Part shown: piece after piece, positions 4,402 through 52,422 of the stretch
Numbering within the stretch: the first letter of the stretch is position 1
How the letters are laid out: every line of letters starts with the position of its first letter
Notes under the pieces: model-generated
The model's input: only the letters and a program-made list of their open reading frames with translations
What the model was told of the DNA's origin: nothing
Database searches by the model: none
Translations under genes and position numbers: made by a program
Assembly: GCA_965116865.1 (NCBI GenBank)
Contig: OZ220727.1
Coordinates: 3,038,307-3,102,306 of the forward strand
DNA from: Acidimicrobiales bacterium
GTDB taxonomy: Bacteria; Actinomycetota; Acidimicrobiia; Acidimicrobiales; Aldehydirespiratoraceae
Reading direction: 5' to 3'
Length of the DNA stretch: 64,000 bases

Positions 4402-4406
4402 CTGTT

Positions 4407-19958: not shown

Positions 19959-19960
19959 GC

Positions 19961-20599: not shown

Positions 20600-22546
<1,947 letters not shown>

Positions 22547-22695: not shown

Positions 22696-22784
22696 TTATG
22701 TCCCAAAATCGCGATATCGCTGTCACAAAACCGCAGGTCAGAAGGTTGTGTACTGCGCGAAATCGGCATTACTCAACAGTCTCC
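22696..22784 (-). pseudogene. Continuation of the IS30-family transposase remnant between the IS1182 and IS630 elements
   Basis: Minus-strand frame ...CGFVTAISRFWDI abuts the IS1182 end. Joined to KDLTTRQGH on the other side, it reproduces the spacing of the IS30 segment ISxRPxxVxxRxxxGH (12 residues between IS and GH). Assignment by eye only. Confidence 0.35.
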
Positions 22785-23949: not shown

Positions 23950-23950
23950 G
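22862..23950 (+). CDS. IS630-family transposase
   Basis: GTG at 22862 preceded by TGGAGG (the ORF track starts at TTG 22850). HTH region (LALRCRIVLGAAAGETNKSIAASLGCSEATVSKWRRRF). DDE region (VLCVDEKTRIQAL ... HVVLDNSSTHKT ... FHFTPTYSSWTNLVERWF). Confidence 0.9.
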   Translation: MARGRRAVEVVLADEQRETLERWARRQKSSQALALRCRIVLGAAAGETNKSIAASLGCSEATVSKWRRRFAGRGLDGLCDEPRPGAPRTVSDDKVQEVIVKTLESAPEGATHWSTRSMAAQVGLSQSTISRMWRAFGLRPHGVEEFKVSPDPQFIDKVRDVAGLYLNPPEAAVVLCVDEKTRIQALDRAAPVLALMPGVPQRRTHDYRRFGTTNLYAALDAASGKVISSMTARRRAIEFRKFLDLIDSEVPEGLKVHVVLDNSSTHKTPAIQRWLLRHPRFSFHFTPTYSSWTNLVERWFAELTTKWIRRGTHRSTKELTGSIQHWIDHWNHNPRPFTWHKSADEILHNLATYLQRISDSGH

Positions 23951-25481: not shown

Positions 25482-25522
25482 GATTCTGGGCAATCCTTCG
25501 CGTTCAGCCGAACAACCGGCGC

Positions 25523-28500: not shown

Positions 28501-31500
28501 TGGTGAATGTCAGTGACAGTACAGGCCCTGCAGTCGTCACTGTCACTGAGCTTGCCGTCGGTGTGGACAGTACCAGGTCGTTGTCTGCGAGCGCGGACAC
28601 GGTCATGGTCACAGCGTCTGCGGGCTGCGCCGAGAGCCGCACCGTGTATGTGGTGTCGGTGCCTTCGGTGACTGTCGCTGCTGTCGGGTCGAATTGCAGG
28701 CCTGCGGTGTCGTCGTCGGTGATGGTGACGATGACGTTGCCGGTTGTGTCGTAGTCGCCGCCTGAGGTGTCGTGGCGTAGTGTTGCGGTGTCGTCGGCGG
28801 TGTCGTCGTCTTCGTCGGCGTGCACCGTCACTGTCTGGTAGGTGTCCCAGTTGTTTGTGGTGAATGTCAGTGACAGTACAGGCCCTGCAGTCGTCACTGT
28901 CACTGGGCTTGTCGTCGGTGTGGACAGTACCAGGTCGTTGTCTGCGAGCGCGGACACGGTCATGGTCACATCGTCTGCGGGCTGCGACGAGAGCCGCACC
29001 GTGTATGTGGTGTCGGTGCCTTCGGTGACTGTCGCTGCTGTCGGGTCGAATTGCAGGCCTGCGGTGTCGTCGTCGGTGATGGTGACGATGACGTTGCCGG
29101 TTGTGTCGTAGTCGCCGCCTGAGGTGTCGTGGCGTAGTGTTGCGGTGTCGTCGGCGGTGTCGTCGTCTTCGTCGGCGTGCACCGTCACTGTCTGGTAGGT
29201 GTCCCAGTTGTTTGTGGTGAATGTCAGTGACAGCACAGGCCCTGCAGTCGTCACTGTCACTGAGCTTGCCGTCGGTGTGGACAGTACCAGGTCGTTGTCT
29301 GCGAGCGCGGACACGGTCATGGTCACAGCGTCTGCGGGCTGCGCCGAGAGCCGCACCGTGTATGTGGAGTCGGTGCCTTCGGTGACTGTCGCTGCTGTCG
29401 GGTCGAATTGCAGGCCTGCGGTGTCGTCGTCGGTGATGGTGACGATGACGTTGCCGGTTGTGTCGTAGCCGCCGCCTGAGGTGTCGTGGCGTAGTGTCGC
29501 GGTGTCGTCGGCGATGTCGTCGTCTTCGTCGGCGTGCACCGTCACTGTCTGGTAGGTGTCCCAGTTGTTTGTGGTGAATGTCAGTGACAGTACAGGCCCT
29601 GCAGTCGTCACTGTCACTGAGCTTGCCGTCGGTGTGGACAGTACCAGGTCGTTGTCTGCGAGCGCGGACACGGTCATGGTCACAGCGTCTGCGGGCTGCG
29701 CCGAGAGCCGCACCGTGTATGTGGAGTCGGTGCCTTCGGTGACTGTCGCTGCTGTCGGGTCGAATTGCAGGCCTGCGGTGTCGTCGTCGGTGATGGTGAC
29801 GATGACGTTGCCGGTTGTGTCGTAGCCGCCGCCTGAGGTGTCGTGGCGCAGTGTTGCGGTGTCGTCGGCGATGTCGTCGTCTTCGTCGGCGTGCACCGTC
29901 ACTGTCTGGTAGGTGTCCCAGTTGTTTGTGGTGAATGTCAGTGACAGTACAGGCCCTGCAGTCGTCACTGTCACTGAGCTTGCCGTCGGTGTGGACAGTA
30001 CCAGGTCGTTGTCTGCGAGCGCGGACACGGTCATGGTCACAGCGTCTGCGGGCTGCGCCGAGAGCCGCACCGTGTATGTGGAGTCGGTGCCTTCGGTGAC
30101 TGTCGCTGCTGTCGGGTCGAATTGCAGGCCTGCGGTGTCGTCGTCGGTGATGGTGACGATGACGTTGCCGGTTGTGTCGTAGTCGCCGCCTGAGGTGTCG
30201 TGGCGCAGTGTTGCGGTGTCGTCGGCGATGTCGTCGTCTTCGTCGGCGTGCACCGTCACTGTCTGGTAGGTGTCCCAGTTGTTTGTGGTGAATGTCAGTG
30301 ACAGTACAGGCCCTGCAGTCGTCACTGTCACTGGGCTTGTCGTCGGTGTGGACAGTACCAGGTCGTTGTCTGCGAGCGCGGACACGGTCATGGTCACATC
30401 GTCTGCGGGCTGCGACGAGAGCCGCACCGTGTATGCGGTGTTGGTGCCTTCGGTCACAGACAGCGCTGGCGGGTTGAATTGCAGGCCTGCGGTGTCGCTG
30501 TCTGTGATGGTGACGGTGATGTTGCCGGTTGTGTCGTAGTCGCCGCCTGAGGTGTCGTGGCGCAGTGTTGCGGTGTCGTCGACGGCGTCGTCGTCTTCGT
30601 CGGCGTGCACCGTCACTGTCTGGAACACGTTCCAGTTGCTTGTGGTGAATGTCAGTGACAGCACAGGTTCCGAAATCGACACTGACACTGAGCTTGCCGT
30701 CGGTGTGGACAGTACCAGGTCGTTGTCTGCGAGCGCGGACACGGTCATGGTCACAGCGTCTGCGGGCTGCGACGAGAGCCGCACCGCGTATGTGGTGCTG
30801 TCGCCTTCGGTCACAGACAGCGCTGGCGGGTTGAATTGCAGGCCTGCGGTGTCGTTGTCGGTGATGGTGACGGTGATGTTGCCGGTTGTGTCGTAGTCGC
30901 CGCCTGAGGTGTCGTGGCGTAGTGTCGCGGTGTCGTCGACGGCGTCGTCGTCTTCGTCGGCGTGCACCGTCACTGACTGGTAGGTGCCCCAGTTGCTTGT
31001 GGTGAATGTCAGTGACAGCACAGGTTCCGAAATCGACACTGACACTGAGCTTGCCGTCGGTGTGGACAGTACCAGGTCGTTGTCTGCGAGCGCGGACACG
31101 GTCACGGTCACATCGTCTGCGGGCTGCGACGAGAGCCGCACCGCGTATGTGGTGCTGTCGCCTTCGGTCACAGACAGCGCTGGCGGGTTGAATTGCAGGC
31201 CTGCGGTGTCGTTGTCGGTGATGGTGACGGTGATGTTGCCGGTTGTGTCGTAGTCGCCGCCTGAGGTGTCGTGGCGTAGTGTCGCGGTGTCGTCGGCGAT
31301 GTCGTCGTCTTCGTCGGCGTGCACCGTCACTGACTGGTAGGTGCCCCAGTTGCTTGTGGTGAATGTCAGTGACAGCACAGGTTCCGAAATCGACACTGAC
31401 ACTGAGCTTGCCGTCGGTGTGGACAGTACCAGGTCGTTGTCTGCGAGCGCGGACACGGTCACGGTCACATCGTCTGCGGGCTGCGACGAGAGCCGCACCC

Positions 31501-34500
31501 CGTATGTGGTGTTGGTGCCTTCGGTGACCGTCACTGCTGGCGGGTCGAATTGCAGGCCTGCGGTGTCGTCGTCGGTGACCGTCACGGTCATGCTGGCGGT
31601 GACGGTGTCGAAGTCGGCGCCTGATGCGGTGTGGGTTAGTGTGAGAGTGTCGTTGGCAATGTCGTCGTCGTGGCTGGCAGTGACGGTGACGGTCTGTGCT
31701 GTGTTCCAAGCGGCCTGGGCGAACGTCAAGGAGGTGCTGCTGAGGGTGGCGTCGGTGTCGGCGTGGCCGGTGACGGCGACGATGACTGGTCCGGTGGGCT
31801 GCCCGTTCAGTTTGACGTTGTAGCTGTTGGTAAAGCCTTCGTTGACGGTCAGCGACGACGTGGACAGTTTCAGGGCCTGGGTGTCGTTGTCGGTGCTTTC
31901 GGCGTAGAAGTGAGTGTCGGCAGAGTCGAAGCCGCCGCCGCTAGCGTTGTGCCTCAGCCCGATCGAGTTGTCTGAGAAGTCGTCGTCTTCCGCGGCGGTG
32001 ACGGAGACGGTCTGCCAGGTGTCCCATGCGGAGACGGCGAACGTTAAGGTCGTCGGACTCACCGTCATGATGGAGCTGGTTGCAGGAATGATCTCGACAG
32101 TCACCTCGGCCGTTGGCTCTCCGGACAGCCTCACAGTGTATCCGGCGGTGGAGCCCTCCGGCACGCTTACCCCGGAGGACGGCTGGAATTCAAGAGATGG
32201 GGTGTCGTTGTCGTTGATGGTGACGACGAGGTTGTTGTCGGCGTCGTCAAAGCCGCCGCCGGTGGAGTCGTGGGCGAGCGAGAGCGAGTCGGTGACAATG
32301 TTGTCGTCCTCGCCGGCGGTGACGGAGACGGTCTGCCAGGTGTCCCATGCGGAGACGGCGAACGTTAAGGTCGTCGAGCTCACCGTCATGATGGAGCTGG
32401 CTGGAGGAGTGATCGCTACGGTTACATCGTCTGCGGGCTGCGACGAGAGCCGCACCCCGTATGTGGTGTTGGTGCCTTCGGTGACCGTCACTGCTGGCGG
32501 GTCGAATTGCAGGCCTGCGGTGTCGTCGTCGGTGACCGTCACGGTCATGCTGGCGGTGACGGTGTCGAAGTCGGCGCCTGATGCGGTGTGGGTTAGTGTG
32601 AGAGTGTCGTTGGCAATGTCGTCGTCGTGGCTGGCAGTGACGGTGACGGTCTGTGCTGTGTTCCAAGCGGCCTGGGTGAACGTCAAGGAGGTGCTGCTGA
32701 GGGTGGCGTCGGTGTCGGCGTGGCCGGTGACGGCGACGATGACTGGTCCGGTGGGCTGCCCGTTCAGTTTGACGTTGTAGCTGTTGGTAAAGCCTTCGTT
32801 GACGGTCAGCGACGACGTGGACAGTTTCAGGGCCTGGGTGTCGTTGTCGGTGCTTTCGGCGTAGAAGTGAGTGTCGGCAGAGTCGAAGCCGCCGCCGCTA
32901 GCGTTGTGCCTCAGCCCGATCGAGTTGTCTGAGAAGTCGTCGTCTTCCGCGGCGGTGACGGAGACGGTCTGCCAGGTGTCCCATGCGGAGACGGCGAACG
33001 TTAAGGTCGTCGGACTCACCGTCATGATGGAGCTGGTTGCAGGAATGATCTCGACAGTCACCTCGGCCGTTGGCTCTCCGGACAGCCTCACAGTGTATCC
33101 GGCGGTGGAGCCCTCCGGCACGCTTACCCCGGAGGACGGCTGGAATTCAAGAGATGGGGTGTCGTTGTCGTTGATGGTGACGACGAGGTTGTTGTCGGCG
33201 TCGTCAAAGCCGCCGCCGGTGGAGTCGTGGGCGAGCGAGAGCGAGTCGGTGACAATGTTGTCGTCCTCGCCGGCGGTGACGGAGACGGTCTGCCAGGTGT
33301 CCCATGCGGAGACGGCGAACGTTAAGGTCGTCGAGCTCACCGTCATGATGGAGCTGGCTGGAGGAGTGATCGCTACGGTTACATCGTCTGCGGGCTGCGA
33401 CGAGAGCCGCACCGCGTATGTGGTGCTGTCGCCTTCGGTCACAGACAGCGCTGTCGGGTCGAATTTCAGGCCTGCGGTGTCGTTGTCGGTGATGGTGACG
33501 GTGATGTTGCCGGTTGTGTCGTAGTCGCCGCCTGAGGTGTCGTGGCGTAGTGTCGCGGTGTCGTCGGCGATGTCGTCGTCTTCGTCGGCGTGCACCGTCA
33601 CTGACTGGTAGGTGCCCCAGTTGCTTGTGGTGAATGTCAGTGACAGCACAGGTTCCGAAATCGACACTGACACTGAGCTTGCCGTCGGTGTGGACAGTAC
33701 CAGGTCGTTGTCTGCGAGCGCGGACACGGTCACGGTCACATCGTCTGCGGGCTGCGACGAGAGCCGCACCCCGTATGTGGTGTTGGTGCCTTCGGTGACC
33801 GTCACTGCTGGCGGGTCGAATTGCAGGCCTGCGGTGTCGTCGTCGGTGACCGTCACGGTCATGCTGGCGGTGACGGTGTCGAAGTCGGCGCCTGATGCGG
33901 TGTGGGTTAGTGTGAGAGTGTCGTTGGCAATGTCGTCGTCGTGGCTGGCAGTGACGGTGACGGTCTGTGCTGTGTTCCAAGCGGCCTGGGCGAACGTCAA
34001 GGAGGTGCTGCTGAGGGTGGCGTCGGTGTCGGCGTGGCCGGTGACGGCGACGATGACTGGTCCGGTGGGCTGCCCGTTCAGTTTGACGTTGTAGCTGTTG
34101 GTAAAGCCTTCGTTGACGGTCAGCGACGACGTGGACAGTTTCAGGGCCTGGGTGTCGTTGTCGGTGCTTTCGGCGTAGAAGTGAGTGCCGGCAGAGTCGA
34201 AGCCGCCGCCGCTAGCGTTGTGCCACAGCCCGATCGAGTTGTCTGAGAAGTCGTCGTCTTCCGCGGCGGTGACGGAGACGGTCTGCCAGGTGTCCCATGC
34301 GGAGACGGCGAACGTTAAGGTCGTCGGACTCACCGTCATGATGGAGCTGGTTGCAGGAATGATCTCGACAGTCACCTCGGCCGTTGGCTCTCCGGACAGC
34401 CTCACAGTGTATCCGGCGGTGGAGCCCTCCGGCACGCTTACCCCGGAGGACGGCTGGAATTCAAGAGATGGGGTGTCGTTGTCGTTGATGGTGACGACGA

Positions 34501-36250
34501 GGTTGTTGTCGGCGTCGTCAAAGCCGCCGCCGGTGGAGTCGTGGGCGAGCGAGAGCGAGTCGGTGACAATGTTGTCGTCCTCGCCGGCGGTGACGGAGAC
34601 GGTCTGCCAGGTGTCCCATGCGGAGACGGCGAACGTTAAGGTCGTCGGGCTCACCGTCATGATGGAGCTGGCTGGAGGAGTGATCGCTACGGTCACATCG
34701 TCTGCGGGCTGTTTAGATAGTTGCACCTTGTAGTTGGCGGTGGAGCCCTCATCAACCTCGACCGGGTCAGGACTGAAAATCAGGCCATGGGTGCTGATAA
34801 CGATCGGTGCCTTGTTCCGTGAGAGTTCGGAGAAGCCGGTGTAGCCAGCCTCAGCTAGGGCCACATAGAAGATTTCACGACTTTCTGTAGGCTCATTTCC
34901 AGATACGTCGATTTCGATATTAGCGGACCCATTTGCCGTAGCGGTGCCAGCACCGTTGAACTTCTCGTAGCCGTAGATGATGTAATCTGTGATAGATCCG
35001 CCGGAGAAGAGCTCAGCGTGTCCATAATTGAAGTTCTCCATCGTCAGGCTCTGTGTATCGCTGAAAGACACATCCTGACTGAATCCAGGATCGGCTTGGG
35101 GGATCAGCGAATCTCCCGACACCAGCGCGCGCTGACCGCCGTCGTTGGAAGAGTGAAGAATGGCGACCACTGGCCAAGGAGCCGCGTCTCCGTTATTAGT
35201 CAGCGTGCATTCCGAGGTATCGCCCGGTGCTACTTCCGCTGGGCAGTTTAGCTGGAAGTCGCCGGAGTTGACTGTCACTGTGCTGGACATCGTAGCTCGG
35301 GTGACGTTCAGGGTGTATGTCGTCTGCGTGGTTCCGTCTTCTGCTGTGACCTCGACGACCAGGCTTGTTATGCCCACATCTATGGGTATTGCCGGGCTCT
35401 CTGTTTCGCTGGTGAGCGTGGCTACGGTCGTTCCGTTGATGCTCAAAGTAATGGTCTGTGCTTGACTGTGGGTAGGTGTGGCGGTCAGATAGACCTCTGT
35501 GATCGAATAATCGACAGACTGATTATATGTGCGCGGATCAGCGCTGGTGTCCAATGAAATCGGACTCGCGGAACCGTAGGTAAAGGTCAGTTCGCTCAGT
35601 GAACTGTCGGTGCTCTTGCTGTCCGAACTCGCGATGGTTATTGCCGTCTTGTTCAGAAAGAACCGGCCGGCTCCCGTGGCGTCGTTAGGGGCAAGTCCGA
35701 CGTAGAAGGTCTCGCTGTCTTCATAGTGGGAGTCGTCCACGACAGTGATCGGGATGGTCCGGGAGTCGTTGCCGTCGGCGTCGCCGGATGCGGGGGCTAC
35801 TCCGGACCAATCGAATCGAGAGATCCCGATGAGGTGCTCGCCTACCCAGATGAGCTCGCCCTCGACAGTCGGTTCGGGGGTGAGCGTGCCCCATTGGACA
35901 TCGACGGACCCGCCTCGTACCAGGGCTCTGTTCGAGTCTGTGGACAGGTGAAGCATGGCGACGGCGGGCCAGTTGGCCTCCGCGTCGCCGGTGTGGGTGA
36001 GGGTGCATTGGTGGGTCGTCCCTTCCTGCATGGTGGACGGGCACGCCAACGTGAAGTCGCCGGAGGAGACCTCGGCCAGGGAGTCCTCCGACTCTGGGGG
36101 GGAGGCGAGTTGCCAGGCGATCAGAGTTACCCACGCGGCCGGAGCGAGCATGACCAGCGCTCGCGCCGCGGTGCGAGCGGGCGAACGGCGCCAAGACCGC
36201 CCCCCGGCTGCCTCGTCTCGCACTGCCGCTGGCGCTTCGGGGTCGATCAT
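25523..36250 (-). CDS. Giant (3575-aa) SLH-anchored cell-surface protein with 25 Calx-beta-like repeats
   Basis: N-terminal Arg-rich region plus hydrophobic helix (RSWRRSPARTAARALVMLAPAAWVTLIAWQLA). Two Cys-containing Calx-beta-like modules (ending ...TIPITVVDDSHYEDSETFYVGL and ...EPTESREIFYVALAE) flank one cadherin-like beta-sandwich (SLSELTFTYGSASPISL...TYTLNVTRA). Repeat array. About 25 consecutive Pro. Three SLH domains. No convincing SD before the ATG at 36250, so the start is less certain than the gene. Confidence 0.88.
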   Translation of the reverse strand: MIDPEAPAAVRDEAAGGRSWRRSPARTAARALVMLAPAAWVTLIAWQLASPPESEDSLAEVSSGDFTLACPSTMQEGTTHQCTLTHTGDAEANWPAVAMLHLSTDSNRALVRGGSVDVQWGTLTPEPTVEGELIWVGEHLIGISRFDWSGVAPASGDADGNDSRTIPITVVDDSHYEDSETFYVGLAPNDATGAGRFFLNKTAITIASSDSKSTDSSLSELTFTYGSASPISLDTSADPRTYNQSVDYSITEVYLTATPTHSQAQTITLSINGTTVATLTSETESPAIPIDVGITSLVVEVTAEDGTTQTTYTLNVTRATMSSTVTVNSGDFQLNCPAEVAPGDTSECTLTNNGDAAPWPVVAILHSSNDGGQRALVSGDSLIPQADPGFSQDVSFSDTQSLTMENFNYGHAELFSGGSITDYIIYGYEKFNGAGTATANGSANIEIDVSGNEPTESREIFYVALAEAGYTGFSELSRNKAPIVISTHGLIFSPDPVEVDEGSTANYKVQLSKQPADDVTVAITPPASSIMTVSPTTLTFAVSAWDTWQTVSVTAGEDDNIVTDSLSLAHDSTGGGFDDADNNLVVTINDNDTPSLEFQPSSGVSVPEGSTAGYTVRLSGEPTAEVTVEIIPATSSIMTVSPTTLTFAVSAWDTWQTVSVTAAEDDDFSDNSIGLWHNASGGGFDSAGTHFYAESTDNDTQALKLSTSSLTVNEGFTNSYNVKLNGQPTGPVIVAVTGHADTDATLSSTSLTFAQAAWNTAQTVTVTASHDDDIANDTLTLTHTASGADFDTVTASMTVTVTDDDTAGLQFDPPAVTVTEGTNTTYGVRLSSQPADDVTVTVSALADNDLVLSTPTASSVSVSISEPVLSLTFTTSNWGTYQSVTVHADEDDDIADDTATLRHDTSGGDYDTTGNITVTITDNDTAGLKFDPTALSVTEGDSTTYAVRLSSQPADDVTVAITPPASSIMTVSSTTLTFAVSAWDTWQTVSVTAGEDDNIVTDSLSLAHDSTGGGFDDADNNLVVTINDNDTPSLEFQPSSGVSVPEGSTAGYTVRLSGEPTAEVTVEIIPATSSIMTVSPTTLTFAVSAWDTWQTVSVTAAEDDDFSDNSIGLRHNASGGGFDSADTHFYAESTDNDTQALKLSTSSLTVNEGFTNSYNVKLNGQPTGPVIVAVTGHADTDATLSSTSLTFTQAAWNTAQTVTVTASHDDDIANDTLTLTHTASGADFDTVTASMTVTVTDDDTAGLQFDPPAVTVTEGTNTTYGVRLSSQPADDVTVAITPPASSIMTVSSTTLTFAVSAWDTWQTVSVTAGEDDNIVTDSLSLAHDSTGGGFDDADNNLVVTINDNDTPSLEFQPSSGVSVPEGSTAGYTVRLSGEPTAEVTVEIIPATSSIMTVSPTTLTFAVSAWDTWQTVSVTAAEDDDFSDNSIGLRHNASGGGFDSADTHFYAESTDNDTQALKLSTSSLTVNEGFTNSYNVKLNGQPTGPVIVAVTGHADTDATLSSTSLTFAQAAWNTAQTVTVTASHDDDIANDTLTLTHTASGADFDTVTASMTVTVTDDDTAGLQFDPPAVTVTEGTNTTYGVRLSSQPADDVTVTVSALADNDLVLSTPTASSVSVSISEPVLSLTFTTSNWGTYQSVTVHADEDDDIADDTATLRHDTSGGDYDTTGNITVTITDNDTAGLQFNPPALSVTEGDSTTYAVRLSSQPADDVTVTVSALADNDLVLSTPTASSVSVSISEPVLSLTFTTSNWGTYQSVTVHADEDDDAVDDTATLRHDTSGGDYDTTGNITVTITDNDTAGLQFNPPALSVTEGDSTTYAVRLSSQPADAVTMTVSALADNDLVLSTPTASSVSVSISEPVLSLTFTTSNWNVFQTVTVHADEDDDAVDDTATLRHDTSGGDYDTTGNITVTITDSDTAGLQFNPPALSVTEGTNTAYTVRLSSQPADDVTMTVSALADNDLVLSTPTTSPVTVTTAGPVLSLTFTTNNWDTYQTVTVHADEDDDIADDTATLRHDTSGGDYDTTGNVIVTITDDDTAGLQFDPTAATVTEGTDSTYTVRLSAQPADAVTMTVSALADNDLVLSTPTASSVTVTTAGPVLSLTFTTNNWDTYQTVTVHADEDDDIADDTATLRHDTSGGGYDTTGNVIVTITDDDTAGLQFDPTAATVTEGTDSTYTVRLSAQPADAVTMTVSALADNDLVLSTPTASSVTVTTAGPVLSLTFTTNNWDTYQTVTVHADEDDDIADDTATLRHDTSGGGYDTTGNVIVTITDDDTAGLQFDPTAATVTEGTDSTYTVRLSAQPADAVTMTVSALADNDLVLSTPTASSVTVTTAGPVLSLTFTTNNWDTYQTVTVHADEDDDTADDTATLRHDTSGGDYDTTGNVIVTITDDDTAGLQFDPTAATVTEGTDTTYTVRLSSQPADDVTMTVSALADNDLVLSTPTTSPVTVTTAGPVLSLTFTTNNWDTYQTVTVHADEDDDTADDTATLRHDTSGGDYDTTGNVIVTITDDDTAGLQFDPTAATVTEGTDTTYTVRLSAQPADAVTMTVSALADNDLVLSTPTASSVTVTTAGPVLSLTFTTNNWDTYQTVTVHADEDDDTADDTATLRHDTSGGDYDTTGNVIVTITDDDTAGLQFDPTAATVTEGTDTTYTVRLSAQPADAVTMTVSALADNDLVLSTPTASSVTVTTAGPVLSLTFTTNNWDTYQTVTVHADEDDDTADDTATLRHDTSGGDYDTTGNVIVTITDDDTAGLQFDPTAATVTEGTDTTYTVRLSAQPADAVTMTVSALADNDLVLSTPTASSVTVTTAGPVLSLTFTTNNWDTYQTVTVHADEDDDTADDTATLRHDTSGGDYDTTGNVIVTITDDDTAGLQFDPTAATVTEGTDTTYTVRLSAQPADAVTMTVSALADNDLVLSTPTASSVTVTTAGPVLSLTFTTNNWDTYQTVTVHADEDDDTADDTATLRHDTSGGDYDTTGNVIVTITDDDTAGLQFDPTAATVTEGTDTTYTVRLSAQPADAVTMTVSALADNDLVLSTPTASSVTVTTAGPVLSLTFTTNNWDTYQTVTVHADEDDDTADDTATLRHDTSGGDYDTTGNVIVTITDDDTAGLQFDPTAATVTEGTDTTYTVRLSAQPADAVTMTVSALADNDLVLSTPTASSVTVTTAGPVLSLTFTTNNWDTYQTVTVHADEDDDTADDTATLRHDTSGGDYDTTGNVIVTITDDDTAGLQFDPTAATVTEGTDSTYTVRLSAQPADAVTMTVSALADNDLVLSTPTASSVTVTAAGPVLSLTFTTNNWDTYQTVTVHADEDDDIVDDTATLRHDTSGGGYDTTGNVIVTITDDDTAPPPPPPPPPPPPPPPPPPPPPPPPPSAQEDPAPQPPPPPPQFAGFADVDIASAHATAIEMMFHNGITHGCGTNPLRYCPDLPVTRAQMASLLSRTLGLAGAPQPAGFVDVDPESPHAAAIDALHHNDVTKGCGTNPLRYCPDLPVTRAQMASLLSRTLGLAGAPQPAGFVDVDPESPHAAAIDAMRHNGITRGCGTDPLRYCPHQHVTRAQMASFLRHALNLDTTA
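25526..26084 (-). other. Three tandem SLH domains, C-terminus of giant gene 2
   Basis: FADVDIASAHATAIEMMFHNGITHGCGTNPLRYCPDLPVTRAQMASLLSRTLG and two further copies. The last 32+ nt of conserved core (CCGTTGCGCTACTGCCCGCACCAGCATGTCAC) are identical to gene 1. Confidence 0.85.
26129..26203 (-). repeat. (CCG/CCT)n proline-codon tract, about 25 consecutive Pro codons by my count
   Basis: The plus strand reads cgg/agg triplets without interruption from 26129 to 26203. Confidence 0.9.
26215..34798 (-). repeat. In-frame coding tandem array of 25 units, protein order [A-B-C-D][A-B-C][A-B-C] then 15 D units of exactly 357 bp
   Basis: Off-frame plus-strand ORFs recur exactly every 357 bp at 26343, 26700 ... 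30270, 30984 and 31341. Larger periodicities of 957 and 1314 bp appear at 31914/32871/34185. D-unit consensus AGLQFDPTAATVTEGTDTTYTVRLSAQPADAVTMTVSALADNDLVLSTPTASSVTVTTAGPVLSLTFTTNNWDTYQTVTVHADEDDDTADDTATLRHDTSGGDYDTTGNVIVTITDDDT. Confidence 0.95.
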
Positions 36251-36959: not shown

Positions 36960-38108
36960 CTAGCTGAGAGCCTGGTCGAGGTCGGCCAGGAGGTCATCGA
37001 TGGTCTCGATGCCGACGGAGAGGCGGATCAGTCCGGGGTCGACAGCCAGAGGGGAGTCGGCCACCGAGAGATGCGTCATGGTGGACGGCTGCTCGATGAG
37101 CGACTCCACCGCGCCCAGCGACTCGGCCAGCCGGAAGACCCGGGTGGAGCCAGCCGCGGCCGCCGCGGCGGGCTCGCCGCCGGCGAGGATGCACGACACC
37201 ATCCCGCCGAAGCCGCGCATCTGGCGTGCCGCCAGATCGTGGCCCGGATGGTCCGGCAGGCCCGGGTACAGAACGCGGGCCACTCCAGGGTGGTCGTCAA
37301 GGTACACGGCCACTGCCTGCGCGTTGGCACAGTGGCGGTCCATGCGGACGCCCAAGGTCTTGACGCCCCGCAGCAGCAGATAGCAGTCGAACGGGCCAGG
37401 CACCGCGCCCGCCGCGTTCTGGACGAAGGCCAGCTGTTCGGCCAGCTGGTCGTCGTTGGTGGCTACGAACCCGCCGACCACGTCGGAGTGGCCGCCCAGG
37501 TACTTGGTGCTGGAGTGGACCACGGCGTCGGCGCCCGCCGCCAGCGGGTTCTGCAGGTAGGGGGTGGCGAAGGTGTTGTCGACGATCAGCACGGCGCCCG
37601 CGGCGTGGGCCGCCTCGGCCGTCGCAGCGATGTCGACCACGGACAAGTTGGGGTTGGTCGGCGTCTCGACCCACACCTGCCGGGTCTCGGGCCGCAGCGC
37701 GCCGGCCAAGGCCGCGGGGTCGGTCAGGTCCACCGCCGACCAGGCGACGCCCCGCTGGCCGTGGATGCGGGCGATCAGCCGGAACGTTCCGCCGTAGGCG
37801 TCGAGGCCGAGCACCACGTGGTCGCCCGGGTGCAGCAGGCCCGCCAGCGCGTTCTCGGCGGCCATGCCGCTCGCGAACGCGAACCCGTGCCTCGCCCCCT
37901 CCAGCCCTGCCAAGCTGCGCTCCAGCGCGGCCCGTGTGGGGTTCGACGTGCGGGAGTACTCGTAGCCCCGGTGCTTCCCCGGCGCGTGCTGCACGAAGGT
38001 GGTGGCCAGGTGGACGGGCACGGTTATCGCCCCGGTGGCCTCGTCGGGCTCCTGGCCGACGTGGACGGCCCTGGTCTCGAACCCCCAGGTGTCGTCGCGC
38101 CCGCTCAC
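36960..38108 (-). CDS. Cystathionine gamma-lyase/gamma-synthase family PLP enzyme (Cys/Met metabolism)
   Basis: GTG at 38108 overlaps the CBS stop (GTGA). ETRAVHVG..., YSRTSNPTRAALE, PLP-lysine motif SSTKYLGGHSD, ...LIRLSVGIE. The upstream 374 codons of the 756-aa ORF-track entry run out of frame across CBS and are rejected. Confidence 0.88.
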   Translation of the reverse strand: MSGRDDTWGFETRAVHVGQEPDEATGAITVPVHLATTFVQHAPGKHRGYEYSRTSNPTRAALERSLAGLEGARHGFAFASGMAAENALAGLLHPGDHVVLGLDAYGGTFRLIARIHGQRGVAWSAVDLTDPAALAGALRPETRQVWVETPTNPNLSVVDIAATAEAAHAAGAVLIVDNTFATPYLQNPLAAGADAVVHSSTKYLGGHSDVVGGFVATNDDQLAEQLAFVQNAAGAVPGPFDCYLLLRGVKTLGVRMDRHCANAQAVAVYLDDHPGVARVLYPGLPDHPGHDLAARQMRGFGGMVSCILAGGEPAAAAAAGSTRVFRLAESLGAVESLIEQPSTMTHLSVADSPLAVDPGLIRLSVGIETIDDLLADLDQALS

Positions 38109-39496
38109 GGGCCCGACCCGTCGCCGATGGCGTCGCCCGACCCCGATGACAGGTAGCTGAGCACGTCGGTACTGGAGACAACCGCCCGGGGCCGGCCGCC
38201 GTCGAGCACCAGCAGCGCTGGCGACCGCTCCAGCTTCGTCACCGCCAGCGCTACCGGCTCGCCGATGCCGATCTGTTCCAGCGGCCTGCTCATCACGCTC
38301 TCCACCGGCCGGCCGAGCAGGTCGCCGTCGAAGGCCAGGGCCATCAGCTGCAGCTCGTGGACCGATCCCATCACCTCGGCCGCGGCCAGCGGCATCTCGC
38401 CCTTGGCCACGGGAAGCTGGCTCAGTCCGTTCTCGCGCATGCGGGTGACGGCCAGGCTCACCGGGTCGTCGGGGTTCACGTACACCAGCGGGGGGAGCGC
38501 GCCCGCCTTCGCGTCGAGCACGTCCTTCACGCAGGGATGCTCGCCGATCAGGAACCCGTGCGACGCCATCCACTCGTCGTTGAACACTTTCGACAGGTAG
38601 CCCCGGCCGGAGTCGGGCAGCAGCAGCACCACCACGTCGTCGGGTCCGCAGTCTCGGGCCAGCTCGGCGGCGGCGCACACAGCGGTCCCTCCCGAGCCTC
38701 CGATCAGCAGGCCCTCGCGGCGTGAGACCAGCCGGGCCATGTCGAAGGAGGCCTGGTCGGACACGGCGATCACGCGGTCCACCACCTCGGGGTGGTAGGT
38801 CTCGGGCCAGAAGTCCTCGCCGATGCCCTCCACCTGGTAGGGCCGCCCGGACCCGCCGCTGAACACCGAGCCGGCCGGGTCGGCCGCCACGACCTGCACT
38901 GACGGGTTGCACCGCTTGAGGTAGCGGCCCGCCCCGCTGATGGTGCCCCCGGTGCCCGGCCCGGCCACGAAATGGGTGATGCGGCCGCCGGTCTGGCGCC
39001 AGAGCTCGGGTCCGGTCGTCTTCTCGTGGGCGAGGGGGTTCTCCTGGTTGAAGTACTGGTTGGGCCGGTAGGCGCCCGGCGTGGAGGCCATGAGCCGCTC
39101 GGCGGTGGAGTAGTAGGAGTCGGGGTCCTCGGGCGCCACCGCCACGGGGCACACCACCACCTCGGCGCCGTAGGCCCGCAGCAGTTGCACCTTCTCTGCG
39201 CTCACCTTGTCGGTCATCACGAAGACGCACCGGTAGCCCCGCTGGGCGCCGACCATCGCCAGGCCGACACCGGTGTTGCCCGAAGTGGGCTCGATGATCG
39301 TTCCGCCCGGCTCGAGCAGCCCGTCGCGCTCTGCCCCGTCGATCATCGCGACAGCTATGCGGTCCTTGACGCTGCCGCCGGGGTTGAGCATCTCGAGCTT
39401 GGCCAGCACGTCGCAGCGAGCCTCGGGTATCGCCCGCTGCATCCGCACCAGCGGCGTGTTCCCCACGAGGTTGAGGACGGAGTCGGCGACCTCCAC
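38105..39496 (-). CDS. cbs: Cystathionine beta-synthase (PLP fold-type II domain plus tandem CBS domains)
   Basis: 463 aa. LVGNTPLV, PLP-lysine context NPGGSVKDR, TSGNTGVGLA, GTGGTISG. The C-terminal ~130 aa have two CBS-pair-like segments. Forms an operon with the gamma-lyase, consistent with reverse transsulfuration. Confidence 0.85.
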   Translation of the reverse strand: MEVADSVLNLVGNTPLVRMQRAIPEARCDVLAKLEMLNPGGSVKDRIAVAMIDGAERDGLLEPGGTIIEPTSGNTGVGLAMVGAQRGYRCVFVMTDKVSAEKVQLLRAYGAEVVVCPVAVAPEDPDSYYSTAERLMASTPGAYRPNQYFNQENPLAHEKTTGPELWRQTGGRITHFVAGPGTGGTISGAGRYLKRCNPSVQVVAADPAGSVFSGGSGRPYQVEGIGEDFWPETYHPEVVDRVIAVSDQASFDMARLVSRREGLLIGGSGGTAVCAAAELARDCGPDDVVVLLLPDSGRGYLSKVFNDEWMASHGFLIGEHPCVKDVLDAKAGALPPLVYVNPDDPVSLAVTRMRENGLSQLPVAKGEMPLAAAEVMGSVHELQLMALAFDGDLLGRPVESVMSRPLEQIGIGEPVALAVTKLERSPALLVLDGGRPRAVVSSTDVLSYLSSGSGDAIGDGSGP

Positions 39497-39584
39497 GCCC
39501 GGAAGGCTATCGGGCTCGGTCGTCCCGGCGCTCCCGCTGCAGCCCCCTTCAGCAATGTTGTTCTAGCGATCTATCCTAGACTAA

Positions 39585-39720
39585 GAGCAAGCGCAAATAG
39601 GTGAGAGTCTGTGGTGTCGCTGCGGTGTCATTCCCGCTCTTGTTCGCTGCGCTCACGGGCCGCTCGGGCCACGGCCTCGCCTGTATGGGCCGCGTCGCTC
39701 CCGCCTATTCGCTCGGCCTC
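39585..39720 (+). mobile_element. MITE-like element, copy 2 (136 bp)
   Basis: Termini GAGCAAGCGCAAATAGGTGAGAG ... CTCCCGCCTATTCGCTCGGCCTC (16/23 complementary). Flanked by TAA at 39582-39584 and 39721-39723. A paralogous uninterrupted target lies at 39782-39834. Confidence 0.8.
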
Positions 39721-39740
39721 TAAAATAACCGGCCGAATCG

Positions 39741-39776
39741 GGGGCCGCTATTTTAGTGGACTTGAATAGCGGCCCC
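39741..39776. other. Perfect 12-bp-stem hairpin (GGGGCCGCTATT N12 AATAGCGGCCCC)
   Basis: Seen directly. Lies between the filled and empty copies of the duplicated target sequence. No U-tract on either strand adjacent to a convergent gene, so it is not called as a terminator. Confidence 0.6.
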
Positions 39777-39781
39777 GTTCC

Positions 39782-39834
39782 AGCGATGTTGTTCTAGCAA
39801 TCTACTATTGACTAAAATAACTGGCCGAATCGGG
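39782..39834 (+). repeat. Paralogous empty site of MITE copy 2
   Basis: agcgatgttgttctagcaatctactattgacTAAaataactggccgaatcggg corresponds to 39551-39584 plus 39721-39745 (agcaatgttgttctagcgatctatcctagacTAA[element]TAAaataaccggccgaatcggg), with a single TAA. Confidence 0.8.
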
Positions 39835-39876
39835 CTTCGCGATTCTAGGATGGGCTGGAACATCGGCCGGCATTCA

Positions 39877-39928: not shown

Positions 39929-40304
39929 ATGGAACCCACCCGAGCCGGGCACTTCCGTCGGCAGCTCAGCGGTTACGAGGCGTTCGTGCCCAAGCCGCTT
40001 CCGCCCGACCCGCCGCTGCAGTGGGACACTCGCCTGGTCAGGCTGCTGTCAGACGCCACGGTGGCGCTGGGCCGCCTGGACGGGATGGCCGGCAGCCTCT
40101 CGAACCCCGACCTGTTCGTGGCGTCCTATGTCCGGCGCGAGGCGGTGCTCAGCCCTCGGCTCGTCGCCCGCGACCGTCGGCCGCCTGCTCGACGCGCTGG
40201 TCTCTGAGGGAATCATCGAGGAGATAACCGGCCGAAGGCGCGACCGCGTCTACCGGTACTCGCCGTTCCTCGACGTGCTCTCGGACGACGCCGAACCCGC
40301 CTAG
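39929..40304 (+). pseudogene. Fic/DOC-family protein remnant (Fic_N region fused out of frame to the C-terminal winged-helix; catalytic core deleted)
   Basis: The N-terminal ORF (GHFRRQLSGYEAFVPKPLPPDPPLQWDTRLVRLLSDATVALGRLDGMAGSLSNPDLFVASYVRREAVLS) matches the Fic N-terminal domain pattern. A different frame from about 40148 gives SSPATVGRLLDALVSEGIIEEITGRRRDRVYRYSPFLDVL. No HPFxxGNGR motif anywhere between. Confidence 0.6.
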
Positions 40305-40589
40305 ACGCCGCTGGCCTGCTGGCCAACGGCGCTCGGCCTTGGCCGAGCACGTGGCTCAGGTCGGTCAGCGGGCCGTCTTGTGGGCTCTCGAGAGCCGCGC
40401 CGTCGGTGATGACGGCCAGATGCACTCGGGTCTGAAGCTCCAAGGAGTCGAAGCGCTCGCCGGCGGAGTCTCCAACGGACGGCTCACGAGGGGATCAATC
40501 CACTGGCGGCAGGCACCCGCCGAACGTTACCGGAGGGCCGTCGCGACAGGCGTCCGGCGGTGTCGGTCGTCGGCAGTAGGGTGGCCTTG

Positions 40590-42812
40590 ATGGCGGAGTC
40601 GGCGATTCTGGAGGGCTTGAACCCGGCCCAGCACGAGGCGGTCACCCATGCCGGCGGACCGCTTCTAGTGGTGGCCGGAGCGGGGTCGGGCAAGACCCGC
40701 GTGCTGACCCGTCGCATCGCCCATCTGATCGAGGATCACGGCCTGTTGCCGTTCGAGATCCTGGCCATCACCTTCACCAACAAGGCCGCCGGCGAGATGC
40801 GCGACCGCGTCGGCGCCCTCGTGGGGCCGGTGGCGGAGAGCATGTGGGTGTCGACGTTCCATGCGGCCTGCGTGCGCATCCTGCGCCGCGACGCCGCCTG
40901 CATCGACTACCCGAGCCGCTTCACCATCTACGACCAAGGCGACGCGGTGCGCCTGTGCGGCTACGTGCTGCAAGACCTGAACCTCGACCATAAGCGGTTC
41001 CCGCCCCGGGCGGTCCACGCCACCATCTCCGCGGCCAAGAACGACAGCATCGGCGCCGAGCAGTACGCCGAGCAGGCCTCCAACGTCTACCAGCGGCGCA
41101 TCGCCGAGGTGTTCGACCACTACCAGCGCCGCCTGGCCGTCGCGGCGGCCATGGACTTCGACGATCTGCTGTTGCGCACCGTCGAGCTGTTCCGCAACTG
41201 CCCGGAGGTGCTGGAACGCTGGCGGCAGCGGTTCGCCCACGTGCTTGTGGACGAGTACCAGGACACCAACCCGGTGCAGAACGAGCTAGTGATCAGACTG
41301 GGCGCCGAGAGCCGCCAAGTGACCGCGGTGGGCGACGCCGACCAGTCGATCTACGCCTTCCGGGGCGCCGACATCCGCAACATCCTCGAGTTCGAGCGGG
41401 CCTTCGACGATGTCCGCATCGTGGTTCTGGAGCAGAACTACCGCAGCACCCAGAACATCCTCGACGCCGCCAACTCGGTGATCGTCAACAACGCCGGCCG
41501 CAAGCCCAAGGACCTGTGGACCGACCAGGGATCGGGTCCGGCCATTGTCCGCTACCACGCCGACGACGAAGAGGACGAGGCCCGCTACGTGGTCAGCGAG
41601 ATCGTGCGCCGCTGCGACGCCGAGCAGGCGCGCTTCGACGAGACGGCCGTCTTCTACCGCACCAACGCCCAGTCGCGGGCAGTCGAGGAGCAGCTCATCA
41701 AGGCCGAGGTCCCCTACCGGCTGGTGGGCGGCACCCGCTTCTACGACCGCCGCGAGGTGCGCGACGCCATGGCCTACCTCAAGACGGTCGCCAACCCCGG
41801 CGACGAGGTGAGCGTGAAACGGGCGCTGGGCGTGCCCAAGCGGGGTGTGGGCGCTGCCTCGGTGGCCAAGATCGACGCCTACGCCGCGGAGCGCGGGCTC
41901 ACCTTCTACGAGGCGCTCCGCCACTGCGCCGAGGCCGGCGTCACTGGACGCTCGGCGGCAGGCATCCGGCAGTTCTCCACGCTGATCGACGGCGCCGTCG
42001 GCCTGGAGGCGTCGCCGGCCGCGGTTCTGCAGGAGCTGCTGGAGCGCTCCGGGTACCTGGACGAGCTGCGCTCAGAGAAGTCGGTCGAGGCTGACGGTCG
42101 CCTGGAGAATCTGGCGGAGCTGGCGGGGGTGGCCGGCGAGCACGACACCCTCGACGAGCTGCTGGAGGCGGTGGCGCTGGTGGCTGACACCGACGAACTG
42201 GCCGACGCCGGCGCCGACGAGTCCGCGGTCACGCTCATGACCCTGCACGCAGCCAAGGGCCTCGAGTACCCCGACGTGTACATGATCGGGATGGAGGACG
42301 GCGTGTTCCCCCACATACGGGCCCTGGGCGAGCCTCGCGAACTGGAGGAGGAGCGCCGCCTCGCCTACGTCGGCATCACCCGGGCCATGCGCCGGCTCAC
42401 CCTGACCCACGCTTGGAGCCGGCTGCTGTACGGCAGCCGGCAGTACAACCCGCCGAGCCGGTTCCTCAAGGAGATCCCCGACGAACTGCTGCACACCGTC
42501 GACGGGTCCCGTGTGGTGCGCAGCCGCCACTTCAGCCGCACCCGGCATGAGCGCAGCCTCGACCGGCGGTCGGCTGACCGCGACGAGATCGTCGAGCGGG
42601 CCGTCGAGGCAGGCCGCCGGCCGCAGCCCTCCCGGTCGGGCGCCGACCGCCTCGGGCTTCGGGTAGGCGACGACGTGCGCCACGCCAAGTGGGGCGAGGG
42701 CGTGGTCCTGGACATCAAGGGAGCGGGGGACGAAGCGCAGGCGTCGGTGCGGTTCCCCGCCGTGGGCGAGAAGCAGTTGCTGCTGTCGTGGGCCCCTCTC
42801 GAGAGGATCTGA
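40590..42812 (+). CDS. pcrA: ATP-dependent DNA helicase PcrA/UvrD family
   Basis: ATG at 40590 (MAESAILEGLNPAQHEAV). Motif I AGAGSGKT, motif II VDEYQDTN, QNYRST, C-terminal ...HAKWGEGVV. The ORF track starts 10 codons earlier. Confidence 0.9.
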   Translation: MAESAILEGLNPAQHEAVTHAGGPLLVVAGAGSGKTRVLTRRIAHLIEDHGLLPFEILAITFTNKAAGEMRDRVGALVGPVAESMWVSTFHAACVRILRRDAACIDYPSRFTIYDQGDAVRLCGYVLQDLNLDHKRFPPRAVHATISAAKNDSIGAEQYAEQASNVYQRRIAEVFDHYQRRLAVAAAMDFDDLLLRTVELFRNCPEVLERWRQRFAHVLVDEYQDTNPVQNELVIRLGAESRQVTAVGDADQSIYAFRGADIRNILEFERAFDDVRIVVLEQNYRSTQNILDAANSVIVNNAGRKPKDLWTDQGSGPAIVRYHADDEEDEARYVVSEIVRRCDAEQARFDETAVFYRTNAQSRAVEEQLIKAEVPYRLVGGTRFYDRREVRDAMAYLKTVANPGDEVSVKRALGVPKRGVGAASVAKIDAYAAERGLTFYEALRHCAEAGVTGRSAAGIRQFSTLIDGAVGLEASPAAVLQELLERSGYLDELRSEKSVEADGRLENLAELAGVAGEHDTLDELLEAVALVADTDELADAGADESAVTLMTLHAAKGLEYPDVYMIGMEDGVFPHIRALGEPRELEEERRLAYVGITRAMRRLTLTHAWSRLLYGSRQYNPPSRFLKEIPDELLHTVDGSRVVRSRHFSRTRHERSLDRRSADRDEIVERAVEAGRRPQPSRSGADRLGLRVGDDVRHAKWGEGVVLDIKGAGDEAQASVRFPAVGEKQLLLSWAPLERI

Positions 42813-49460: not shown

Positions 49461-49577
49461 GTCGGCATCAGCGGCTGCTGTGGCTTGCAGCTCGTCACTG
49501 TCGGTCGGGGTCGGTCATGCGTCGGTCGGGGGCCGTCGGCATCAGCGGCTGCTGTGGCTTGCATCTCGTCACTGTCG
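49461..49577. repeat. 43-bp direct repeat x2 (period 74 bp) in the leader of the homocysteine methyltransferase gene
   Basis: gtcggcatcagcggctgctgtggcttgca(g/t)ctcgtcactgtcg at 49461-49503 and 49535-49577. Confidence 0.9.
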
Positions 49578-49668
49578 CGCAACACCGAGTCTCTGCACCG
49601 TCTCGGCTCCGCAACCGGCGTGTCCGGCACCGTCGGTTGCGGCGGCAGCGTGGAGCGCACCGCCCCTT

Positions 49669-49805
49669 GAGCGCGCGCGAATCGGTGAGAGTCCGTGGTG
49701 TCGCAGCGGTGTCGTTCCCGCTCTTGTTCGCTGCGACCTGAGGGCCGTTCGGGCCACGGCCTCGCCTGTATGGGCCGCGTCGCTCCCGCCTGTTCGCTCG
49801 GCCTC
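49669..49805 (+). mobile_element. MITE-like element, copy 3 (137 bp)
   Basis: GAGCGCGCGCGAATCGGTGAGAG ... CCGCCTGTTCGCTCGGCCTC. Near-identical by eye to copy 2. Flanks are CTT and TAT, so the duplication is degraded or absent. Its last base overlaps the TAG stop of the PuuD-like gene. Confidence 0.7.
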
Positions 49806-50515
49806 TATGCCGCTGAGGCCGCCTTCACCAGCCAGTCGAAGACAGGGTCGCGGTCGCGGGAGTCCATCATCTCGGGGTGCCACTGCACGCCGATCCACGG
49901 CAGGCGGCGGGATTCGATGACTTCTATGGCGCCGTCGTCGCTGACTCCGGTCACCTCATAGTCGTCGGCCAGTTCGTCGATGATCTGGTGGTGCAGCGAG
50001 TTGACCTCGATCGACGGGCCATAGAGCGAAGCGGCCAGCGACCCCTCGGTCAGGTCGACCCGATGGACGATCGAATCGGGGGGCAGGTCGTGGCGGGCAT
50101 GGGGCGGGATGTGCTGGTGCAGCGTGCCTCCGCCGTGCACGTTGAGAACCTGGAGTCCCCGGCAGATCCCGAGCACCGGCCTCTCGGTGCTCAGCGCTTC
50201 GTCGAGAAGGCTCAGCTCGAAGGAGTCGCGATCCGGCTCGCGCGTGTACAGCTCGGGGCACGGCTCCTGGCCGTAACGCTCCGGCTCGATGTCGGTTCCG
50301 CCGGTCAGCAGCAGCCCGTCGAGGCGGTCGGCGTATGCGGTGGGATCGGCGCTGCCGGGCAGGAAGACCGGCAGGCCTCCTGCGGCGGTCACCCCGAGGG
50401 CGTAGTTGCGGTAGAACACGTCGAGTCGCAACTCCCGGAACGCTTCGGGCTTCATGTTGAGTTCACCCGCCGTCTTGGTCCGACCGGTGATGCCGATGAG
50501 CGGATCGCTTGCCAC
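49805..50515 (-). CDS. Gamma-glutamyl-gamma-aminobutyrate hydrolase family protein (class I glutamine amidotransferase-like, peptidase C26)
   Basis: 236 aa. Nucleophile elbow GICRGLQ, LLLTGGTDIEP, SLHHQ, VQWHPE. Confidence 0.82.
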   Translation of the reverse strand: MASDPLIGITGRTKTAGELNMKPEAFRELRLDVFYRNYALGVTAAGGLPVFLPGSADPTAYADRLDGLLLTGGTDIEPERYGQEPCPELYTREPDRDSFELSLLDEALSTERPVLGICRGLQVLNVHGGGTLHQHIPPHARHDLPPDSIVHRVDLTEGSLAASLYGPSIEVNSLHHQIIDELADDYEVTGVSDDGAIEVIESRRLPWIGVQWHPEMMDSRDRDPVFDWLVKAASAA

Positions 50516-51768: not shown

Positions 51769-52422
51769 CTAGAAGATGCGGCCCTCGATGCGGCTGGCGG
51801 CCAGCCACAACTCGACGTCGCGGATCGCCTCGGACATGGCCTGGCCGATCAGGTCGAGCTTGCGGACCTGATCGATGCGGCTGCGTACGCCCTCCAGCTC
51901 GCGTTTCGGCAACAGCTGGCGCAGCAGGCCGCATGCGTCCGCCAGGCAGATGATCACGATGTCGCGGGGGTCGGGGATCTCGTCGCTAAGGAGCACGCCC
52001 AGGATCCGCAGCTTCACCTCGCGCTCCTCGGTGCCGTCGATCATCGGGTAGCGCCGCGACCGGAACACCCACAGGAACCGCTCGTCGTGCTGTTCGAGGA
52101 TGCCGTGCTCGACGAGCCGGGCCAGCGCCTCGTCTCGGATGGCGTCGGCCTGCCTGGCCGTCTGCTCCACCCAGTAGCGGGCGTCGTGCTGCTCCCCGGC
52201 CGCGATCTGCTCCAGCGTCGGGTCGAGCAGGCTGTCGCCCACCGGCGTGGAGTCGATCAGAACGAGGTTGTCAGGGTCGGTGTCGATCCGGTTCTCCAGC
52301 GCCAGGTCCATGAGCACGGCGGCTGCCAGCGCGTGCTGCATCGACATCGCCGGGACCGGTACGAACTTGCCGTCGTCGTCCCGCAGTAGCAACAGGACAA
52401 TCTCCTCTGCGAATCTCAGCAT
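51769..52422 (-). CDS. GPP34/GOLPH3-family protein
   Basis: 217 aa. MLRFAEEIVLLLLRDDDGKF...LAAAVLMDLALENRI...ARLVEHGIL, typical of the bacterial GPP34 family as I recall it. Confidence 0.7.
   Translation of the reverse strand: MLRFAEEIVLLLLRDDDGKFVPVPAMSMQHALAAAVLMDLALENRIDTDPDNLVLIDSTPVGDSLLDPTLEQIAAGEQHDARYWVEQTARQADAIRDEALARLVEHGILEQHDERFLWVFRSRRYPMIDGTEEREVKLRILGVLLSDEIPDPRDIVIICLADACGLLRQLLPKRELEGVRSRIDQVRKLDLIGQAMSEAIRDVELWLAASRIEGRIF

Follow-up and report, generated by a model that had tools for sequence, protein, structure and literature searches.

Genes and repeats in the window

The window (the whole stretch of 64 kb that was analysed) carries two giant ORFs, one of 5438 amino acids at 3642-19958 on the forward strand and the other of 3575 amino acids at 25523-36250 on the reverse strand. 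The former contains about 35 tandem repeats of 339-345 nt, up to 99-100% identical, as well as a Cadherin-like domain near the N-terminus, and long internal repeats occur in the latter too. The repeat units of the 5438-aa ORF matched no Pfam family above threshold. Both ORFs probably encode surface or adhesin-like proteins, a type that is common in sponge symbionts. Positions 19900-25500 form a nest of insertion sequences which includes ISL3-type transposase fragments (19913-20179 and 24063-24888), an IS1182-like element (transposase at 20600-22546, ends CTAGGTGGCTGGTG at about 20514 and 22685) and, adjoining it, an IS630-like element at 22850-23950. The ISL3-type transposase appears to have been split by the other two elements. 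A GACACC-rich simple repeat is present in the IS1182-like ORF around 21.6-21.95 kb. The window also encodes a homologue of GPP34 (Golgi phosphoprotein 3) at 51769-52422 on the reverse strand; in Actinobacteriota this family is reported to mark sponge symbiosis (PMC11706023), and its presence is consistent with a sponge-symbiont origin of the window.

The feature that is the subject of this article is a short repeat which occurs three times in the window. Copy 1 (135 nt, 54-188, reverse strand) lies between an upstream gene, the apparent stop codon of which is the TAA at 51-53, and a DtxR/IdeR-like gene at 201-896 on the forward strand; no exact-protein match was on record for P0001 or for the product of the gene at 201-896. 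Copy 2 (136 nt, 39585-39720, forward strand) is located in a divergent intergenic region, with a CBS/PALP gene (38105-39496, reverse strand) on one side and a degraded Fic gene and UvrD/PcrA (40560-42812, forward strand) on the other. The Fic/DOC-family remnant spans 39929-40305, with a Fic_N match at 39929-40207, and its frame is broken and shortened before a TAG at about 40303. Copy 3 (137 nt, 49669-49805, forward strand) adjoins the stop of a Peptidase_C26 gene (49805-50515, reverse strand), the TAG of which takes the last base of the element. Beside this copy, about 100 nt (49560-49665) share homology with a cytochrome P450 gene at its 3' end; in two related loci (L119 and L120) the P450 gene is convergent to Peptidase_C26, and in the window it has been lost and only the fragment is left.

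Anatomy of the three copies

The sequence-only reading had described these repeats as three near-identical copies of a MITE-like family. Direct reading, alignment and profile search all returned exactly the coordinates that it had given; "near-identical" was slightly too strong, as the pairwise identities obtained by blastn are 88% (copies 1 and 2), 83% (copies 1 and 3) and 91% (copies 2 and 3), that is, 83-91%. An nhmmer profile built from the three copies recovered them with E values of 6.6e-41, 1.4e-43 and 1.4e-39, respectively, and revealed no fourth copy in the 64-kb window, the next match having E=0.33. The element is not AT-rich, its GC content being 67-71% compared with 66% for the window. 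With a length of 135-137 nt the copies are too small to encode a transposase, in agreement with the absence of coding capacity noted before.

In copy 2, direct reading and the family consensus place the left terminal inverted repeat (TIR), GAGCAAGCGCAAATAGGTGAGAG, at 39585-39607 and the right one, CTCCCGCCTATTCGCTCGGCCTC, at 39698-39720. These termini are complementary at 16 of 23 positions, as the first reading had it. Between them lies a conserved core of 50 nt, TTCCCGCTCTTGTTCGCTGCGCTCACGGGCCGCTCGGGCCACGGCCTCGC (39631-39680), which contains the internal third copy of the terminal box (CTCTTGTTCGC) that had also been predicted; the core corresponds to 93-142 in copy 1 and to 49715-49765 in copy 3, where it has a 1-nt insertion. 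Direct reading likewise confirmed TAA on both sides of copies 1 and 2 and CTT and TAT beside copy 3. The duplicated triplets are found at 51-53 (TAA on the forward strand) and 189-191 for copy 1, and at 39582-39584 and 39721-39723 for copy 2, and the flanks of copy 3 look like a decayed duplication. The TAA at 51-53 is probably also the stop codon of the upstream ORF, judging from a frame with high GC3.

Distribution and size of the family

Species-representative genomes were scanned with a 21-nt piece of the element core as query. At least 117 loci were obtained overall, of which at least 116, from at least 41 Acidimicrobiia MAGs, are true loci; one of the 117 listed, in an alphaproteobacterial MAG, is a chance match within a gene. 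The hosts among the matches listed include Ca. Aldehydirespirator, Ca. Poriferisodalis and further MAGs of the class, several of which bear the names of sponge symbionts. The repeat is therefore a dispersed, multi-copy family, the point on which the first reading had proposed to search relatives. No match to copy 2 was detected by blastn in plasmid and phage collections. In the JGI metagenome 3300003175, one contig aligns with the window over copy 3; its 200-nt flanks are 100% identical and its insertion is of equal length. No publication on MITEs in these bacteria, or describing the element, was found in the literature.

The DNA fetched for comparison (the L-numbered loci cited below) amounts to about 0.9-1 Mb in total from related loci. 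In the window and the 117 listed loci together, nhmmer produced 185 hits, which correspond to 161 sites once merged. Within the 117 loci there were 182 profile hits, 56 of which lack the search pattern; these bystander sites amount to about 45 per Mb of fetched DNA, a density equal to that of the window. Since hits that are free of the search pattern occur at a window-like density, the family must be large; by extrapolation, the number of copies is on the order of 100 or more per genome.

Termini, target site and duplication

Among 50 full-length copies with flanks, the boundaries of the element are sharp (GAGC...GGCCTC) and the tips, GAGCG.GCGC...CGCTCGGCCTC, are conserved, with inverted repeats that are imperfect. 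The left arm starts with GAGCG.GCGC.(A/G)ATAGG and the right tip is CCTAT(T/C)CGCTCGGCCTC, the 50-nt core and the right arm lying between the two. The right end GAGGCCGAGCG is unlike the left end GAGCGTGCGCG. The family consists of elements of about 115-150 bp, within the size range of about 50-600 bp set for MITEs; those measured are 133-151 nt long, and the inverted termini lie 135-150 nt apart.

The flanks have the consensus C-T-W-R / element / T-W-R-G, and the target looks like C-TNA-G. Identical 3-bp flanks occur in 17 of the 50 full-length copies, compared with 4.9 expected and with a maximum of 15 in 10,000 trials in which left and right flanks were re-paired at random. Of 10 cases with TTA, 7 have it on both sides, and TAA is on both sides in 5 of 8; an inverted match was seen once. 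The duplication is therefore direct and not the extension of a palindrome. The element ends in C in 49 of the 50 copies, also where flank position -4 is not C, which favours a duplication of 3 bp over one of 5 bp. Duplications of 2 bp (TA) or 5 bp (CTNAG) were ruled out by these flank statistics. A perfect duplication is kept in only about one third of the copies. Both consistent termini and target duplications, the genome-wide features on which the MITE interpretation had been made to depend, are thus present among the 50 full-length copies.

Occupied and empty sites

The two flanks of each copy were joined and searched in the other loci, and species were found to differ at orthologous sites by the element plus about 3 bp. 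In two comparisons (L022 with L074 and L103 with L085) the flanks, when projected onto the empty locus, have exactly 3 bp in common, and in three others (L046/L066, L090/L064 and L031/L083) 2-4 bp. In L079 the empty site coincides with the stop codon that ends the upstream gene (GAATAG|CGCC), where the occupied locus L025 reads GAATAA-[element]-TAG. The homologous site is also empty in the pair L009/L032, and the window itself lacks the element at a site which in L028 is occupied by a tandem pair.

A paralogous empty site of copy 2 is found in the window at 39779-39843 (forward strand), ...ATTGAC TAA AATAACTGGCCGAATCGGG, with a single TAA at 39813-39815. The site of copy 2 reads ...CTAGAC TAA [element] TAA AATAACCGGCCGAATCGGG, and the comparison of the two reveals an exact TAA duplication. 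The surroundings of copy 2 (39548-39860) consist of a pre-MITE tandem duplication of about 95 nt, the units of which start with the 18-mer CAGC(A/G)ATGTTGTTCTAGC at 39550 and 39781, and a perfect 12-bp hairpin, GGGGCCGCTATT...AATAGCGGCCCC, is located between them at about 39737-39776.

For copy 3, the orthologous position in L119 and L120 (about 80% protein identity) was considered as an empty site and set aside. It has 24-28 nt between convergent stops and is not cleanly empty, because L120 holds a TIR-like remnant there: the 24 nt between the stops at 3209-3236 of that locus read TGA CCTATCCCGCACGCCGTGCTC CG TCA, which looks like a left-end remnant of the element.

Dispersed copies, consistent termini, TNA flanks that match above chance and orthologous sites at which one species has the element and another lacks it support the MITE interpretation of the first reading.

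Insertion preference and gene context

The elements are intergenic and, among the cases with a gene end within 60 nt, about 20 of 85 abut a stop codon (distance -1 or 0). The orientation of the copies with respect to genes was unbiased (22 and 14 copies in the two orientations between co-directional genes, 48 and 37 relative to the abutting gene end), and no enrichment near particular gene classes was obvious. Stop codons and their complements are TNA triplets, and such triplets are scarce in the host genome. Insertion takes place at TNA, preferably within C-TNA-G and often at a stop codon or its complement, with duplication of the three bases. An insertion exactly at a stop codon regenerates the codon, so the gene stays intact.

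Head-to-tail dimers which share one triplet occur in L011, L028 and L068. Such dimers may arise because the end of the element plus TNA-G recreates the target: ...CTC-TNA followed by G would remake the preferred site and would thereby permit reinsertion at the element's own end.

Comparison with structured RNAs

The two ends of the element are able to pair as a long stem, and G-C/A-U exchanges are found at two pairs of columns, 12/130 (6 double changes) and 13/129 (4 double changes). These features would agree with a structured ncRNA gene or a cis-regulatory RNA present in many copies, in which the inverted repeats form the closing stem. Such an origin is very improbable. The search of Rfam 15 that had been recommended as a control gave no match at gathering over the whole window, nor any match on the element at E up to 10 around copy 2; the relaxed search (E up to 10) yielded a single match outside the element, with E=1.8. 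An RNA family is thus recognized at neither level. The folding energy is no better than that of shuffled sequences (MFE z-scores of +0.38 and -0.88), the covariation term of RNAalifold amounts to only -0.57 kcal/mol and any double change is present in only 5 of 29 pairs. Furthermore, the two orientations with respect to transcription are about equally common, and neither 3-bp duplications nor precise presence and absence of the sequence are expected of an RNA gene.

Modularity, decay and age

Family members vary in their interior. Subfamilies of 135 nt and of about 146-151 nt are distinguished, and short forms without the right arm pass from the core directly to CTCGGCCTC. Partial forms comprise model positions 1-97, 43-136 and 47-99, and footprints of 25-35 nt retain both tips (for example in L044 around 4976). 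Internal tandem units are present in L027 (5 x 27 nt plus 5 x 22 nt, still flanked by TGA and TGA), L052 (6 x 44 nt) and L099 (at least 5 x 27 nt). In L101 (6945-7130), two neighbouring elements, each of about 88 nt, have the ends GAGGCAGCGCGGATAGG...CCTATCCGCACACGTTC and TTA flanks but no 50-nt core; they are a sister MITE family with the same termini. After insertion, copies would decay mainly by internal deletion down to the 25-35-nt footprints, and the internal units of 22, 27 or 44 nt would expand and contract.

Excluding the core, the arms are on average 75% identical within a genome and 70% between genomes, with a maximum of 92% for a non-tandem pair. This low identity between the arms of different copies, only about 70-75%, suggests that the family may be old.

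The modular structure, with the partial forms 43-136, 47-99 and 1-97 and with arrays of the 44-nt unit, recalls REP/BIME-type mosaics, as do the extragenic position of the copies, their high number and their frequent location at gene ends. A mosaic of this type would have been spread by a RAYT (an IS200/IS605-like tyrosine transposase) or by recombination, and not by a DDE transposase. We regard this origin as extremely improbable, since the repeated units are not short palindromes and have no REP architecture, the inverted termini are defined and lie 135-150 nt apart, and insertion of the element duplicates 3 bp of target. Target duplications of such a kind are not known from REPs. No RAYT-like gene was noticed beside the copies in a casual view of their neighbours. 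A match to REP/BIME-type elements, which the sequence-only reading had itself named as the observation that would speak against a MITE, was therefore not encountered, there being no REP-like anatomy.

The conserved 50-nt core

Conservation is highest in the 50-nt core and not in the TIRs, an atypical pattern for a MITE; neither this nor the modularity of the family could be seen in the first reading. Even where copies had been recovered independently of the search pattern, almost all core positions (model positions 47-96) are 90-100% conserved, compared with 50-90% for most positions of the arms. Four orthologous pairs from different species were compared, with an identity of 83-96% between their flanking genes and with arms that are visibly diverged; of 106 positions contributed by the 29 core bases that the search pattern does not cover, about 2 differ. 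Cores anchored on the right tip have a bimodal distribution, with scores of 40-49 of 50 or no core at all and few intermediates, and the same core is common to subfamilies with different arms and to different genera.

Part of this conservation is a matter of ascertainment, as a core pattern had been used to retrieve the loci. The remainder could be due to gene conversion or to a sequence needed in cis for transposition.

The contrast between core and arms (90-100% conservation compared with 50-90% at most arm positions), the approximately 2 differences in 106 positions of orthologous pairs despite diverged arms, the nearly intact or absent state of right-tip-anchored cores and the presence of the core in subfamilies with different arms and in different genera would also agree with a functional module under host selection that is carried by a MITE vehicle and could be a regulatory site in the DNA, a site bound by a protein or one that the element itself requires in cis. 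This reading adds to the MITE explanation and does not exclude it; the family would persist through the action of its core. We hold it to be unlikely. The 21-nt search pattern selected both members of each orthologous pair for an intact core, and uniformity would equally result from gene conversion among about 100 or more copies or from a cis-requirement for transposition. Neither orientation bias nor obvious enrichment of a gene class accompanies the copies, and there is no excess of fold stability (z = +0.4 and -0.9). In the region of copy 2, no promoter- or terminator-like match was detected within the element, the only hairpin lying outside of it. That the core TTCCCGCTCTTGTTCGCTGCGCTCACGGGCCGCTCGGGCCACGGCCTCGC was spread by the MITE to about 100 or more intergenic sites per genome in several genera, and was then kept by selection, is thus proposed only tentatively and with more doubt than confidence.

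The putative partner transposase

The MITE interpretation raises the question of the enzyme that moves the element. The IS1031 subgroup of the IS5 family inserts at TNA and generates exclusively 3-bp repeats, and the TIR of ISLrh begins with GAACCTG (PMC12016507); the suggestion of the first reading that a 3-bp T(N/W)A duplication is typical of some IS5 subgroups agrees with this property (PMC12016507). Other TIRs of the IS5 family have the form GAGACC...GGTCTC (ISPg1, ISPg4 and ISNme1) (PMC4596501), and a Streptomyces IS5-family element among the fetched DNA (L241) has the TIR GGACCTGTCTGA in a CTAG target. Like the IS5 elements of the IS1031/IS427 type, the Acidimicrobiia element has a 3-bp TNA duplication and a T(N)A target in a C...G context, and its GAG...CTC tips recall theirs, which begin with GAG/GAA and end in CTC. 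Unlike the IS5 elements compared, its TIRs are longer, imperfect and only weakly similar past the first few bases. They agree with those of ISLrh (GAACCTGTCT) and Streptomyces (GGACCTGTCTGA) at about 6-7 of 10 bases, and the resemblance of the imperfect TIRs (16 of 23) to known IS5 tips is confined to GAG/GAAC.TG.

The GAG(C/A)...CTC tips and the C-TNA-G preference fit this group and make a DDE transposase of the IS5 family, supplied in trans, the most likely agent. We consider it probable that the family represents non-autonomous MITEs of sponge-associated Acidimicrobiia which would be mobilised in trans by an IS5-family (IS1031/IS427-like) DDE transposase. The nearest relation appears to be the IS5 family (IS1031/IS427 type), and there was no cognate IS by which the element could be assigned to a particular IS lineage.

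The IS1182-, IS630- and ISL3-type elements of the window have unrelated ends, as had been remarked, and no partner transposase is present in the window. Across the approximately 0.9-1 Mb of related loci, pairing of TIR HMM hits, regular expressions and clustering of ORFs identified no autonomous element with matching ends. The repeated ORFs that clustered were rejected as partner candidates, as Pfam assigned them to sulfatases, SDRs, ABC proteins and similar families. A tblastn search of about 1 Mb of fetched DNA for an IS427/IS1031-like transposase (DUF4096/DDE_Tnp_1_2 type) returned nothing; the query used is about 70% identical to Streptomyces IS5-family transposases. A metagenome scan with the TIR 15-mer GTGCGCGGATAGGTG, a pattern that is too short, gave 120 chance matches (soil, gut and other sources), none of them with the element or an IS5-like gene.

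Comparison with known repeats

The element is a bacterial MITE of a familiar kind apart from its unusually invariant 50-bp centre. The BrickBuilt MITE of Porphyromonas gingivalis has IS5-like GAG... tips and a variable number of short tandem units inside (PMC4596501). The Acidimicrobiia element resembles it in the IS5-like tips and, in L027, L052 and L099, in the tandem interior units. It differs in that BrickBuilt always has a minisatellite and inconsistent target duplications, whereas here a single core and a regular 3-bp TNA duplication are found; hosts and sequences are unrelated. The BOX elements of Streptococcus pneumoniae are intergenic, have the structure boxA-boxB(n)-boxC, and their partner IS is uncertain (PMC3049150). 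Both families disperse between genes and have terminal modules that can pair around a central module which is absent, single or in tandem. BOX, however, has no clear target duplication, in contrast to the Acidimicrobiia element, the central module of which is in addition the part most conserved across genera; the sequences of the two are unrelated.

Actinobacteria also contain the intergenic MIRU repeats, which measure 40-100 bp, often lie between the genes of an operon and vary in tandem copy number. They are not known to have terminal inverted repeats or target duplications, nor to transpose. In contrast, the Acidimicrobiia element has terminal inverted repeats, target duplications and insertion polymorphism.

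Biological significance

The family described here is a defined and testable family of mobile elements for uncultured sponge symbionts, for which no repeats described in the literature were found. Its HMM together with the TNA rule allows repeats to be masked or annotated in MAGs, in which they are probably behind assembly breaks and spurious calls of small ORFs, and the presence or absence of insertions provides markers of strain and species history. Insertion exactly at stop codons illustrates a way for a high-GC genome to tolerate hundreds of insertions. The conserved core could be of biological significance if it is a true functional site; in that case, for example as a site to which a protein of the host or of the element binds, it would be an exapted motif with a regulatory or architectural role throughout the genome, and not junk DNA.
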